Of a stretch of DNA of 51,826 nucleotides, positions 2,847 to 42,234 are shown one piece after another. The stretch lies in NCBI GenBank assembly GCA_016199805.1, contig JACQGC010000013.1, positions 1-51,826 on the forward strand, in the 5' to 3' direction. The notes beneath the pieces are model-generated. The model ran no database searches and was not told the origin of the DNA. It saw only the letters and a program-made list of their open reading frames with translations. This DNA comes from Candidatus Nomurabacteria bacterium. Its GTDB lineage: Bacteria > Patescibacteriota > Minisyncoccia > Phycocordibacterales > UBA9973. The number at the start of each line of letters is the position of its first letter. Position 1 is the first letter of the stretch. The position numbers and the translations under genes are program-made.

Positions 2847-2852
2847 TATAAT
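2847..2852 (+). promoter_or_regulatory. -10 box (TGcTATAAT) 6 nt upstream of the ATG at 2859
   Basis: gtgcTATAATaattttATG. No Shine-Dalgarno. Leaderless-type arrangement. Confidence 0.5.
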
Positions 2853-2858
2853 AATTTT

Positions 2859-3107
2859 ATGAAAAAGTATCTAAATTTTAACGGGTTGATGCAGGTTTGC
2901 GTCGTATTTTTTACCATGCTGGGATTTTTGCTTATCGCTTTGAAATTACCCGGATGGGGACTGGTTAGTAACTTAATTTCGGAACCTTTTTGGCTATATA
3001 GCTCATACAAATCTTGGAAAAATGCGGACCAAATCGGCGCTTTTATTACTACACTGATGATTACGGCTATTTTACTTTTCGGCGTGCTTAATTATTTTGT
3101 TTTTTAA
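2859..3107 (+). CDS. small integral membrane protein, hypothetical
   Basis: Start chosen at the internal ATG (MKKYLNF...) because a TATAAT lies 6 nt upstream. Three hydrophobic segments. Confidence 0.5.
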   Translation: MKKYLNFNGLMQVCVVFFTMLGFLLIALKLPGWGLVSNLISEPFWLYSSYKSWKNADQIGAFITTLMITAILLFGVLNYFVF

Positions 3108-3112
3108 TTTAA

Positions 3113-3859
3113 ATGAAACTCATTGATTTAAATGCGGAATGCGGAGTTCACCTTGAGCCGCTTTTAGAATTCATCAGGACGCAATCAGCTGATACTGATA
3201 TTTTTTGCTTTCAGGAAGTTTTTCATAAAGGTATTGTAAAGAGGTGGTTCTTGGGTGAGGCTAGGCCGGAGCTTTTTTCCGAGATAGAGAAAGTTCTGCC
3301 GGATTTCAATAGTTACTTTTGCGCCCCATCGGAAAAAGACGTCGGCGGTTTGGCTATTTTTATTAAAAAATCTTTTACGGTAAACAAGGTAGAAAATATG
3401 GTTCTCTTCCGGGAAATGAACGAAACGACAGATGAAGACGATAAAAGCTATTTTGCCATGGGTAGAAATCTCCAGTCTGTTAATTTTACTAAAGACGGCA
3501 AAACTTATACTATTTTTAATTTCCACGGCATGTGGACGGCAAAAGGGAAGATAGATACTCCGAAACGACTAGAGCAATCGGAAAAAATTAAAAAGATATT
3601 TGATGTCACAAAAGGCGCTAGAATACTCTGTGGGGATTTGAATTTGGAACCGGACACCCAAAGTTTAAATATTTTAACCGGAGAAAATAGAAATTTAATT
3701 CAAGAATATAAAATAACTTCCACTAGAAGTTCGTCTTATGCCAAGCCATCAAAACTTGCCGACTATGCCCTAATCTCGCCGGAGGTGGAAGTAATAGATT
3801 TCAAAGTTCTAAAAGACGAAGTTTCCAACCATTTGCCACTGTTTTTGGAATTCAAATAA
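3113..3859 (+). CDS. endonuclease/exonuclease/phosphatase (EEP) family protein
   Basis: 248 aa. Contains FCFQEV, NFHGMW, GDLNLEP and SNHLPL, the typical EEP catalytic blocks. Confidence 0.8.
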   Translation: MKLIDLNAECGVHLEPLLEFIRTQSADTDIFCFQEVFHKGIVKRWFLGEARPELFSEIEKVLPDFNSYFCAPSEKDVGGLAIFIKKSFTVNKVENMVLFREMNETTDEDDKSYFAMGRNLQSVNFTKDGKTYTIFNFHGMWTAKGKIDTPKRLEQSEKIKKIFDVTKGARILCGDLNLEPDTQSLNILTGENRNLIQEYKITSTRSSSYAKPSKLADYALISPEVEVIDFKVLKDEVSNHLPLFLEFK

Positions 3860-3872
3860 ACTGCCTCTGTGC

Positions 3873-3878
3873 TATAAT
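3873..3878 (+). promoter_or_regulatory. -10 box (TGcTATAAT) 6 nt upstream of the ATG at 3885
   Basis: tgtgcTATAATttatccATG. Confidence 0.5.
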
Positions 3879-3884
3879 TTATCC

Positions 3885-4343
3885 ATGAAAAAGTTAATTA
3901 TTATACTGATTTTGATTACGCTTGGAATATCGGCTTTTGTTGGGAGCAGGACATGGGCACCTTTGCCTCAGACCCAAAACACAAACACTAATACAGAAAA
4001 TCCAAAATCAGACCTTATCCGTGTCGAAACTCCGCAACCTGGCGAAAATATCAGCAGTCCGGTTGTCATAAAAGGAACCGCCCGTGGGTCTTGGTTTTTT
4101 GAAGCCAGCTTTCCGGTGGTACTTGCCGATTGGGATGGGCTCATAATCGCGCAAGGCACAGCTAAAGCAAAAGGCGACTGGATGACTGCAGATTTCGTGC
4201 CCTTTGAAGCCACGCTCACATTCAAAACTTATGCTAAAAATTATAGCAATAAAGGCACTTTGATTTTAAGAAAAGATAATCCATCAGGATTGCCAAAGAA
4301 TAATGATTCCCTGGAAATACCCGTATTTCTCATCAACCAGTAG
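3885..4343 (+). CDS. secreted Gmad2 immunoglobulin-like domain protein
   Basis: Signal/TM N-terminus. ISSPVVIKGTARGSWFFEASFPVVLADWDG...DFVPFEATLTF matches the Gmad2 Ig-like pattern. Confidence 0.65.
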   Translation: MKKLIIILILITLGISAFVGSRTWAPLPQTQNTNTNTENPKSDLIRVETPQPGENISSPVVIKGTARGSWFFEASFPVVLADWDGLIIAQGTAKAKGDWMTADFVPFEATLTFKTYAKNYSNKGTLILRKDNPSGLPKNNDSLEIPVFLINQ

Positions 4344-39842: not shown

Positions 39843-39867
39843 TTTTTACTTTACGGACTTTATAACT

Positions 39868-40611
39868 TTATAAACTTTCAACTACTATCTCTTGTTTAGT
39901 CATAATAATATCTCCACCGTTTGTTTCCTGCATTGCTTCCATAATTCCTTGCCTTACCAGTTCCAGCATAGCAAGAAATCCAACAATTACAACCACCTTT
40001 TCCTCGCGGGTGGCGGGTCGGCCGGATATGCCGCTCAAATCTTTGAAGTTCATAGTGAGCGCTGATTTTATTCTTTCTGTCAGTTTATCTATCATTTCTT
40101 CTATACTGATTACGGTTTTCACTTCCACTTGCGGCATGAAAATCTTTTTCGGCATCGCCCCCAAGACATCCCGGGCAAAAGTCATCATGGAATCTCGTGT
40201 GATTTGATTGTCCGGCAAAAAAATTATGTTTTCATTTTTTCTTTCGTTTGGCGCAAAAATTATTTTTTTGCCAAAGTCACTTTTTATATTACCTCCCAGT
40301 CTCAAGAAGAGCTCATATAACCGCAATCTTTCTTCCAGGCTTTTTATGTTTCCTTCTTCTTCATTGGTCAGGTCCAGATTTGGTAAAAGAGATTTTGATT
40401 TAATTAAAAGCAAAGTGGAAGCCACCAAGACAAAACTGGAAACTTCAGCCGGAGACAATCCGCCCAGCTTGTTCATGTAGCTCAAATAATCTTCGGTAAC
40501 TGCCGACAAAGACACGTCGTTAATAAAAAGCTTTCGCTTTTCTATCAAATTCAAAAGTAGCCCAAAGGGTCCTTCAAAACCCGCCATCTTTATTTGAAAA
40601 GCCTCATCCAT
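39868..40611 (-). CDS. scpA: segregation and condensation protein A
   Basis: 247 aa. FEGPFGLLLNLIEKRKL.I.DVSL..VT..YL is the canonical ScpA N-terminus. Confidence 0.9.
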   Translation of the reverse strand: MDEAFQIKMAGFEGPFGLLLNLIEKRKLFINDVSLSAVTEDYLSYMNKLGGLSPAEVSSFVLVASTLLLIKSKSLLPNLDLTNEEEGNIKSLEERLRLYELFLRLGGNIKSDFGKKIIFAPNERKNENIIFLPDNQITRDSMMTFARDVLGAMPKKIFMPQVEVKTVISIEEMIDKLTERIKSALTMNFKDLSGISGRPATREEKVVVIVGFLAMLELVRQGIMEAMQETNGGDIIMTKQEIVVESL

Positions 40612-40643
40612 GTATATATTGTATACCTATTTCTGCATTTTGC

Positions 40644-40901
40644 CTATTTTATATATCCTTCTTTTTTCAGAATTTCTTTTTTCTTTTGGGTGCCGCCGTT
40701 ATACCCGCCAAGCTTTCCATCCGAGCGTATAACTCTGTGACAAGGAATTTTCGGGTCATGATTTTTGTTTAATATATTTCCCACGGCTCGGCTAGCCTTG
40801 GCATTCCCCGCCCTTCTGGCAACTTCCTTATAAGTCAAAACTTTCCCCTTAGGAATTTTTTTCACCACCTCATGAACTTTTTGAGTAAAAGATTTCTGCA
40901 T
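40644..40901 (-). CDS. MGMT-family DNA-binding domain protein (methylated-DNA--protein-cysteine methyltransferase C-domain only)
   Basis: 85 aa. TYKEVARRAGNAKASRAVGN...IPCHRVIRSDGKLGGY contains the PCHRV active-site motif. Confidence 0.85.
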   Translation of the reverse strand: MQKSFTQKVHEVVKKIPKGKVLTYKEVARRAGNAKASRAVGNILNKNHDPKIPCHRVIRSDGKLGGYNGGTQKKKEILKKEGYIK

Positions 40902-40909
40902 GGTTTTAT

Positions 40910-42109
40910 TTATTTTGGGGTGTCTGTTATCCCCATTACAGGACCAACAAATTCATCATATCCTTGAAGTGCTCTTATGTAAGGTCTTCTGCGAGCCTCT
41001 TCGCATTCAATATTTTCCTTCGAAAAAGGTGCACCGCTATATATTGCATAAGGTTTTTTAGTGTTAGCTGCATCCATATTATCTCCAGACATGAAATGCC
41101 ACCATTCTTCGGGATAATTAGAAATTCCCACTTTTTTTAATATTTGATACAGAAAACGCCTGTTTGTTTGTGCCTCTTTTTCTTCGAGGGTAAGTTCCCG
41201 CTGTTGTGCTAAGTCTTCAAAATAACGCATTCCAGCTTCGTCACCAAAAAAATCAAAACCAACTCCCATTTTTAGTGCTTTACAGTTTTCTCTAAAGATC
41301 TGAGCTTTTAAAATTGCAAAACGATATTTTCCAAGCCACGTATTACGCTCCTGGTCTATTTTTTCTTTACTCCATTTTTTACTAGCTCCTTGTCGCTCAA
41401 TATATTCTTCCACGTTTTTAATCTGCTCGGCTTCTCCCATAAGCCCAACTGGTTTGTTGAGTTCCCCTTTTTTCATTTTTTTGTTTAAATCAGCTAATCT
41501 CTTTTTACCTTGTTCATCCATTTTAATAATTGTTAAATCAACAGCCCCACCCGTACTATGTGGAGAAGGATGCGTAGTTCCCCTTTCTGTATTTGGGGAA
41601 GGTAAAGAAACATAGTTTTGTGTTTTTGAATCTAGAGTTGCTTCATCCCACTCAGGGTGAGCTATTTTAAATTTTGCCTTTTGTTCATCAAAAAGAGCCT
41701 GCTGAACACTTAGCGGTCTATAAGTATCATAAAAACGAAAATAGTACCCTTCCGGCAATAATTCTTGAGCAGCTAATAATTTTTCTGCCACCCCTTTACG
41801 CACAAAATGGGTTATTAGACTTACCCGTCTATCAACTTCCCCTTCAAGAAAATTCATCTTATGGCCATAACCACGCTCTCCAAAATATGCAGAACTTGTG
41901 TCGCAATCCGTAAATCCTTTATATTTTGGTTCTTTTCCCTCCTCGTAAAATTCCCAATCATCATCAGAAAAAGCACCAAGGGGAACAAGCGGTTCTCCGC
42001 ATTCTCGTACTTCAATTTTCTTCCATCCCTCTACTGTTTCCTTGGGTATTTCTGGTAAATTTTCCGAAAGTTCAATTTTTTGTACTTTCTTTTTAAAGGG
42101 ATTTTCCAT
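40910..42109 (-). CDS. VanX-like D-Ala-D-Ala dipeptidase family (M15D) protein with a large insertion
   Basis: 399 aa. YDTYRPLSVQQ, SPHSTGGAVDL and EEWWHF motifs. About 130 aa of charged sequence lies between the Zn-ligand blocks. Confidence 0.7.
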   Translation of the reverse strand: MENPFKKKVQKIELSENLPEIPKETVEGWKKIEVRECGEPLVPLGAFSDDDWEFYEEGKEPKYKGFTDCDTSSAYFGERGYGHKMNFLEGEVDRRVSLITHFVRKGVAEKLLAAQELLPEGYYFRFYDTYRPLSVQQALFDEQKAKFKIAHPEWDEATLDSKTQNYVSLPSPNTERGTTHPSPHSTGGAVDLTIIKMDEQGKKRLADLNKKMKKGELNKPVGLMGEAEQIKNVEEYIERQGASKKWSKEKIDQERNTWLGKYRFAILKAQIFRENCKALKMGVGFDFFGDEAGMRYFEDLAQQRELTLEEKEAQTNRRFLYQILKKVGISNYPEEWWHFMSGDNMDAANTKKPYAIYSGAPFSKENIECEEARRRPYIRALQGYDEFVGPVMGITDTPK

Positions 42110-42225
42110 ATATATTAGTATACTAAATACTAAATAAAATGCTATAGTTTAGTTTTCTACTTATTTTTTCACAACCCTGTAAGTTTTTGGGCAAAAGACT
42201 TGTATTTTTTGTTTCATGTTTTTTG

Positions 42226-42234
42226 TGATATAAT
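42226..42234 (+). promoter_or_regulatory. extended -10 promoter (TGaTATAAT)
   Basis: Sits 5 nt upstream of the ATG at 42240. Same geometry as the other leaderless-type starts in this window. Confidence 0.35.

Follow-up and report, generated by a model that had tools for sequence, protein, structure and literature searches.

Promoter boxes abutting start codons suggest leaderless genes in a Candidatus Nomurabacteria genome

Introduction

How is the start of a gene recognised when a promoter-like hexamer lies so close to the start codon that almost no leader would be left in the transcript? The question is raised by a 51,826-nt stretch of DNA, hereafter the window (C2:1-51826, the first 51,826 positions of contig C2), from a Candidatus Nomurabacteria bacterium of the class Paceibacteria, a member of the Patescibacteria or candidate phyla radiation (CPR) with an ultra-small genome. 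A preliminary description of the window listed 19 gene starts with a -10 hexamer ending 5-8 nt upstream and proposed that mRNAs in this organism are predominantly leaderless. Here we analyzed the window together with the rest of the genome and its relatives. We consider it likely that extended -10 promoters put the +1 position on the start codon, and that ribosomes without an anti-Shine-Dalgarno (anti-SD) sequence engage the 5'-terminal AUG or GUG.

Genomes and gene calls

The genome comprises 753 kb in 19 contigs, with 42% GC and 99% completeness. Genetic code table 11 fits (79% of the genome lies in open reading frames, ORFs, of at least 600 nt), and an alternative genetic code was rejected. 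A simple codon-usage caller gave 720 genes, the first start codon of each ORF being taken as the gene start and promoters being ignored in that choice. Upstream boxes were scored with a position weight matrix (PWM) trained on the genome's own class of boxes at -12, and scores of at least 8 were regarded as strong. The strict set required such a score at offsets -14 to -11 from any candidate start within the first 80 codons. For expected counts, the 40 nt upstream of each gene were shuffled with their dinucleotide composition preserved. Three genomes are referred to by their handles: the congener G007 (400 kb compared, 35% GC, 16S rRNA without anti-SD), G087 from another family of the same order, and G122 from another Patescibacteria class that has kept CCUCC. 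Rfam and tRNA scans of the window returned no matches.

A -10 box at a fixed distance from start codons

When the A of ATG is counted as +1, textbook numbering places the -10 hexamer at -12 to -7. The pattern TAnnnT started at -12 in 18.8% of 717 genes, compared with ~3% at other offsets, and hexamers matching TATAAT in at least five of six positions were found there in 12.8%, compared with ~1% elsewhere. The enrichment over shuffled AT-rich sequence that the preliminary description predicted was present both in the window, where 14 genes carried TAnnnT at -12 against 2.3 ± 1.5 expected (z = 7.9), and in the whole genome (135 against 27.8 ± 5.0, z = 21). Strong boxes occurred at the real start codons of 145 of the 720 genes (20%), compared with 5-31 at in-frame decoy codons; lowering the PWM threshold to 6 gave 210 genes versus 29-83 for decoys. 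The 145 strict calls were concentrated at -12 (96), followed by -13 (29), -14 (17), and -11 (3).

Where a strong -10 box of any kind could be recognised within 150 nt, ~62% of the genes were of this leaderless type (145 vs 90). At the strict threshold they also accounted for 24% of candidate transcription-unit heads. Both shares are approximate and depend on our own gene caller. Calling the mRNAs "predominantly" leaderless was thus an overstatement, as the pattern covers 20% of genes strictly and at most ~30% under looser settings.

Promoter identity of the upstream motif

The 135 genes of the -12 class were picked on T, A, and T at -12, -11, and -7 only. At the unselected positions -15 and -14, T was found in 72% and G in 64% of them, and a weak T/T/G signal at -35 to -33 (54/46/29%) gave a spacer of 17 nt. 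The combined pattern TGnTAnnnT was counted 77 times at -12, 13 times at -13, 7 times at -14, and 0-4 times at most other offsets. The TG extension and the -35 TTG at 17-nt spacing identify these sites as sigma-70 extended -10 promoters, and several window sites also passed a two-hexamer promoter scan. Position -1 in the -12 class was mostly T or C.

The start codons were also distinctive. The strict set used 134 ATG, 10 GTG, and a single TTG, compared with 472 ATG, 34 GTG, and 69 TTG among the other genes under the naive start rule. Experiments in mycobacteria established that leaderless translation requires an ATG or GTG at the 5' terminus and that such a codon suffices for it (PMC4633059). 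The near-exclusion of TTG fits both this 5'-RTG rule and a purine at +1.

Gene arrangement mattered as well. The motif preceded 32% of divergent genes and 25% of genes behind co-oriented spacers of 16-40 nt, and was depleted at spacers of 0-15 nt (9.5%) and at overlaps (8.8%), making it about threefold rarer at tightly coupled internal genes.

Conservation among relatives

Orthologues in the congener G007 retained the arrangement. A strong box was found at the aligned start in 33 of 56 orthologues of leaderless-type genes, with weak boxes in 8 more, compared with 18 of 221 orthologues of other genes. Across 39 orthologue pairs that were unselected on the partner's motif, identity reached 79%, 79%, and 72% at -12, -11, and -7, compared with ~33% in the flanks, and the codon periodicity of the alignments (third positions lower) began only downstream of the ATG. 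Such a footprint backs the assigned starts as well as the box.

The -12 peak extended beyond the genus. It reached 20% in G007 (TGn in 35 cases vs ~1) and 17% in G087. In the anti-SD-positive G122 it was 9%, together with a Shine-Dalgarno (SD) peak at -12 to -9. For gltX, encoding glutamyl-tRNA synthetase, the 23 closest CPR homologues included 11 with TGnTAAAAT at a gap of 6 nt from the ATG, and none had an SD. The box was found in none of 49 non-CPR homologues, 28 of which carried SD-like motifs.

Shine-Dalgarno sequences, the 16S rRNA tail, and ribosomal proteins

SD words were not enriched before starts in this genome, and GGAG was present in 4.7% of upstream regions, which is the random level. 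The absence of an SD at a functional distance, as claimed for the 19 listed starts, held for all of them. It should be noted that GAGG precedes start 24348 at -6 to -3 and GAGGAG precedes start 31278 at about -25; neither is at a functional distance.

The 16S rRNA genes of relatives had no CCUCC in nine of nine cases (five of five congeners, three of three from the same order, one of one from the same class). All nine ended in ...CUCGUGGAAUAAUUCAAUUUGAAA, a tail also given as ...GGAAUAAUUCAAUUUGAAA. In contrast, 25 of 25 16S rRNA genes from other Patescibacteria classes ended in GGAUCACCUCCUUUCU, with CCTCC present. Loss of the anti-SD has been described for a Parcubacteria subgroup that overlaps the group lacking ribosomal protein uL1 (Tsurumaki et al. 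2022, RNA 28:1041, PMC9297842). Consistent with this, uL1 (PF00687) had no match in this 99%-complete genome and was matched in 14 of 14 control genomes. No match to bS21 was found in this genome either, and bS21 was also missing among the controls from Thermus, Deinococcus, and Corynebacterium, which belong to leaderless-rich groups. A 380-aa S1-like ORF with four S1 domains is located at C2:119517-120446. As a replacement for SD pairing, we considered words complementary to the congeneric 16S tail; such k-mers were not enriched before starts (at most ~2-fold, generic A/T words), and this candidate was rejected.

Proposed mechanism and alternative explanations

That transcription begins at the start codon, or no more than 1-2 nt away from it, as the preliminary description proposed, is supported at the sequence level by the position of the box, its TG and -35 elements, the RTG start codons, the orthologues, the distribution in the clade, and the lack of SD and anti-SD signals. 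The actual transcription start site (TSS) and the mode of ribosome loading are what we infer from these data. RNA polymerase would begin with the first base of the start codon, A (or G), and produce a leaderless mRNA, so that the promoter would set the start site in ~20-30% of genes. With the CCUCC tail lost from the 16S rRNA of the lineage, ribosomes would not be recruited by SD pairing, and the 5'-terminal AUG or GUG would be bound directly, as in mycobacteria and Deinococcus. Since many of the promoters occupy 7-40-nt spacers or extend into the end of the gene ahead of them, genes that in other organisms would be internal to an operon would receive a leaderless transcript of their own. The other genes may be reached by overlap or close coupling (ATGA), by an A-rich, G-poor upstream stretch, or by a repeat leader (~5%).

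Several observations weigh against this reading. The pattern fits only about 20-30% of genes. Of the 302 other candidate unit heads, 212 lack a strong -10 box within 150 nt, so that either other promoter types exist or starts were miscalled. The starts and gene calls come from a home-made caller that was not benchmarked. The assembly gave no small-subunit rRNA match for the organism's own 16S gene, and loss of the anti-SD is therefore deduced from the relatives and the absence of uL1. In a gltX survey with one genome per family across the order, only 1 of 29 had a strong leaderless-type box; this rarity indicates that the class of an individual gene turns over with time. Two listed sites with weak TATAAA boxes (26920 and 7367) could be chance matches, and sites with gaps of 7-8 nt may have leaders of 1-2 nt.

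These last sites bring in the closest rival, in which genuine promoters start most transcripts a few bases ahead of the ATG, giving leaders of 2-8 nt that a scanning-like or 30S pathway would use. Gaps of 7-8 nt occur in about a third of the strict set (29 boxes at -13 and 17 at -14), boxes stand 9 nt away at 17159 and in several gltX homologues, and TSS variation of 1-2 nt is established for all bacteria. Short leaders are plausible for that third. As a general account they are improbable, because 96 of the 145 sites have the 6-nt gap that would place +1 on the A, and because the start codon itself, with its A or G, supplies the purine that RNA polymerase prefers at +1, position -1 being mostly a pyrimidine. 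Alternatively, TAnnnT may be a non-SD ribosome signal at the RNA level, situated in leadered mRNA and read by S1 or the altered 16S tail, comparable to the A-rich motif of Bacteroidota. The lineage does require some SD-independent entry route, a four-domain S1-like ORF is present, and non-leaderless internal genes show an A-rich, G-poor stretch at -8 to -3. An RNA element, however, has no need of TG at -15/-14 or of a -35 TTG at 17 nt; TTG starts are nearly absent, which fits a purine +1 and a 5'-RTG; words complementary to the 16S tail are not enriched; and the motif favours divergent and spaced genes, whereas the motifs of the GeneMarkS-2 group B genomes precede all genes (PMC6028130). We therefore judge an RNA-level signal to be quite unlikely.

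The pattern could also be an artefact of AT-rich DNA, neighbouring stop codons (TAA within TATAAT), and misassigned starts. The upstream DNA is indeed AT-rich, TAnnnT falls on one of four offsets by chance in ~15% of genes, some sites are weak TATAAA variants, and one -10 box contains the stop codon of the upstream gene. Yet AT-richness would give a broad rise and not a peak at the single offset -12, which stands far above the dinucleotide shuffles; decoy codons yielded 5-31 hits against 145, and the TG extension co-occurs at -12. Furthermore, box and spacing are kept in orthologues whose flanks are saturated and are absent from the non-CPR gltX homologues. An artefact is thus very improbable. 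The motif, its geometry, its conservation, the lack of SD, and the lack of an anti-SD in relatives are observed, and a TSS on the start codon remains our preferred explanation of them.

GC-rich cassettes and other gene starts

The preliminary description further held that GC-rich cassettes with long leaders and AAGGAG represent a second initiation regime in the same genome. Such cassettes exist. Among the 33 genes with GC of at least 0.50, 42% had AGGAG or GGAGG at -20 to -3; for genes with GC below 0.46 the share was <1% (Mann-Whitney p = 5e-9), and a control window gave 0 of 32. In the window, one complete unit (13996-14602) has AAGGAG at 14063-14068, 7 nt before ATG 14076, and ends in a strong terminator with a 16-bp stem (14563-14602); other cassettes of this type are listed in Table 1, and a further SD-bearing start is located at 573/588. 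A working second regime is doubtful. The SD-bearing GC-rich genes had a homologue in G007 in 0 of 14 cases, compared with 48% of typical-GC genes, and in Pfam searches most of them proved to be orphans, the others including a thymidylate kinase, a GreA-like protein, and a response regulator; no single mobile-element signature emerged. Because of their foreign composition, the lack of congeneric homologues, and the missing CCUCC in relatives, the SDs of the cassettes are likelier to be imported relics than a second regime; judging from composition and homology, the cassettes are more likely recent imports that still carry donor-type signals.

The remaining genes show other upstream features. 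Co-oriented neighbours frequently share a 4-nt overlap (ATGA, 22-23 cases) or are separated by 1-9 nt, and the A-rich stretch at -8 to -3 of non-leaderless internal genes consists of 57-65% A and 2-6% G. Tandem (ACTTT)n or (AAAGT)n repeats, in either orientation, directly precede ~34 genes (~5%), for example in the S12-S7 spacer, and only one of these genes is of the leaderless type. Genome-wide, this element forms 46 clusters with a unit of ~9 nt, (ACTTTATRA)n, often as inverted pairs. The unit resembles the epsilon enhancer of phage T7, UUAACUUUA. On contig C18, outside the window, an inverted pair of this element at ~864-952 directly follows a stretch resembling conserved 23S rRNA sequence at the contig start, which may reflect an insertion in, or the boundary of, the rRNA gene.

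Comparison with known systems and implications

Mammalian mitochondria also have no SD or anti-SD, and their mRNAs begin with the start codon or very close to it, as proposed here. Their 5' ends, unlike those considered here, arise by RNA processing of polycistronic transcripts, and their ribosomes and factors are organellar. Among bacteria, the closest counterpart is group C of GeneMarkS-2, mostly Actinobacteria (Mycobacterium) and Deinococcus-Thermus, in which a Pribnow box lies 6-8 nt from starts, 25-50% of operons are leaderless, and the rest use SD sequences (PMC6028130). The genome studied here shares with group C the Pribnow box 6-8 nt before the first gene, a leaderless-type share of about a quarter of transcripts or genes, the apparent need for a 5'-terminal ATG or GTG, and small ORFs at predicted transcript 5' ends (24348 and 42240; compare mycobacteria). 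In contrast to group C, which keeps SD sequences for other genes as well as the anti-SD, it shows no SD enrichment and its relatives have no anti-SD. It also differs in its extended (TGn) -10 promoters, often placed in co-oriented spacers of 7-40 nt, and in being an AT-rich 0.75-Mb genome. Bacteroidota (group B) similarly make essentially no use of SD and have an A-rich, G-poor stretch ahead of many starts. However, they retain the anti-SD and have one RNA-level motif before all genes (PMC6028130), whereas the element described here is a promoter confined to one class of genes.

The Parcubacteria subgroup described in 2022 belongs to the same lineage and agrees in the relatives' 16S rRNA without CCUCC and in the absence of uL1. 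The rRNA loss was reported there, but leaderless mRNAs and promoter geometry were not, and the word "leaderless" is absent from that paper (PMC9297842). Our literature search found no paper tying leaderless genes to Patescibacteria or Parcubacteria, and Nanosynbacter lyticus, of another class, was the only CPR species found with mapped TSS. The finding extends a known mechanism to a new lineage, the twist being an anti-SD loss that had already been published. As the mechanism has precedents in Actinobacteria and Deinococcus and the change in the rRNA has been described before, the advance is incremental and largely foreseeable.

Programs for gene finding and annotation that rely on SD sequences will misplace starts in these abundant, uncultivated bacteria, for which a -10 box 6 nt upstream offers a simple, conserved rule to annotate start and promoter together. 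The lineage, of free-living type and not an organelle, appears to run without SD/anti-SD pairing, which bears on simplified translation initiation in minimal cells and on the ease of expressing foreign genes there. A more far-reaching scenario, which we regard as speculative and rather unlikely, is that Paceibacteria dropped SD/anti-SD wholly and moved start choice to transcription, so that the genome is tiled by mostly monocistronic leaderless units with promoters in the 3' ends of the preceding genes. In that case a translational barrier to foreign DNA would follow: SD-dependent imports, among them the AAGGAG cassettes and perhaps genes of phages, would yield little protein before they gained a start-abutting promoter or a repeat leader.

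Individual sites in the window

All 19 hexamer/start pairs of the preliminary description were found at their positions with gaps of 5-8 nt, 12 of them with a gap of exactly 6 nt. The TGn extension, described as frequent, was correctly placed at 10 of the 19. PWM scores graded 11 sites as strong (starts 2859, 3885, 5553, 10504, 11244, 12217, 15379, 24348, 42240, and 31278, plus 21184 as a borderline case at 7.0), ~6 as moderate, and 2 as weak. The minus strand has four further sites of equal quality that had not been listed (starts 29303, 29693, 34746, and 45880). All sites are compiled in Table 1 together with cassettes and a repeat leader.

Table 1 Start-proximal motifs and other start-associated features in the window. 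Gap, nucleotides between motif and start codon.
Motif or feature	Gap (nt)	Start codon	Coordinates	Strand	PWM score	Gene product and remarks
TGnTATAAT	6	ATG 2859	2847..2861	+	11.3	82-aa membrane-like ORF; internal ATG of ORF 2778..3107
TGnTATAAT	6	ATG 3885	3873..3887	+	12.8	Gmad2-domain protein
TGnTATAAT	7	ATG 5553	5540..5555	+	9.7	DUF3298/PdaC protein
TATAAA	7	ATG 7367	7365..7380	-	-2.1	Weak
TATAAT	6	ATG 10504	10492..10506	+	9.5	IS200-like Y1 transposase-like ORF between palindromes; G007 orthologue 6.9
TGnTATAAT	6	ATG 11244	11232..11246	+	11.9	NUDIX
TATAAT	5	ATG 12217	12206..12219	+	8.3	ABC transporter
TGnTAGAAT	6	ATG 15379	15367..15381	+	9.2	DUF2914 protein
TATTAT	6	ATG 17133	17131..17145	-	6.2	
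TATAAA	8	ATG 20388	20374..20390	+	6.9 (at -14)	Moderate or weak
TATAAT, TG off by 1	8	ATG 21184	21170..21186	+	7.0	IMPDH/GMP reductase family
TGnTATAAT	6	ATG 24348	24336..24350	+	12.2	71-aa small membrane ORF; G007 orthologue 10.8
TATAAA	7	ATG 26920	26907..26922	+	-3.6	Weak
TGnTATTAT	6	ATG 29303	29301..29315	-	11.2	432-aa protein; new site
TGnTATAAT	6	ATG 29693	29691..29705	-	11.9	New site
TGnTAGAAT	6	ATG 31278	31276..31290	-	10.2	Glutamyl-tRNA synthetase (gltX)
TGnTAAAAT	6	ATG 34746	34744..34758	-	12.2	New site; G007 orthologue 11.2
TAGAAT	6	ATG 36589	36587..36601	-	5.3	575-aa protein
TGnTATTGT	6	GTG 36645	36633..36647	+	5.4	VanY carboxypeptidase
TACAAT, no TG	6	ATG 40611	40609..40623	-	3.9	ScpA
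TATACT	7	ATG 42109	42107..42122	-	6.3	M15 peptidase
TGnTATAAT	5	ATG 42240	42229..42242	+	12.9	57-aa ORF only
TGnTATACT	8	ATG 45880	45878..45894	-	9.4	New site
AAGGAG	6	ATG 156	144..158	+		92-aa orphan ORF, GC 51%
GC-rich (54%) leadered cassette			13996..14602	+		12/12 TTGACA-N18-TGnTATAAT; ~44-nt leader; 152-aa orphan ORF
TTGACA...TGnTATTTT promoter, AAGGAG 51103-51108		ATG 51115	51058..51117	+		GC-rich cassette type
(AAAGT)n repeat leader, adjoining the ATG		ATG 39842	39843..39878	-		Third, non-leaderless start class

Some of the promoters are tightly packed. Those of 36645 (plus strand) and 36589 (minus strand) stand back-to-back in one 55-nt spacer. The stop codon of gltX (TAA, 29701-29703, minus strand) falls inside the TATAAT box (29700-29705) of ATG 29693, leaving a spacer of 7 nt. 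At 17134-17158, two divergent genes were said to have overlapping -10 boxes. The overlap itself is real, the minus-strand TATTAT (17145-17140) coinciding with plus-strand TATAAT (17139-17144) and TATTAT (17144-17149), but the plus-strand boxes are separated from ATG 17159 by 14 and 9 nt, and this gene would therefore have a short leader of 2-8 nt. At 21184, judging from the 8-nt gap, the TSS is probably 1-2 nt ahead of the ATG. Both the 444-aa surface protein starting at 17159 and the IMPDH-like gene at 21184 occur patchily within the genus.

Two small ORFs, 24348-24563 (71 aa, membrane-like) and 42240-42413 (57 aa), are located under two of the strongest extended -10 promoters of the window, and the former is kept in the congener G007 along with its promoter geometry. 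In addition, two near-identical 29-nt palindromes, AACTGCGTAAGAACCGTTCTTGCGCAGTT (10450-10478) and AACTGCACGAGAACCGTTCTCGTGCAGTT (11175-11203), flank a 222-aa ORF (10504-11172) with a weak match to IS200-like Y1 transposases. This layout resembles REP/RAYT or IS200/IS605 elements, and the left palindrome adjoins the leaderless-type promoter of the ORF.

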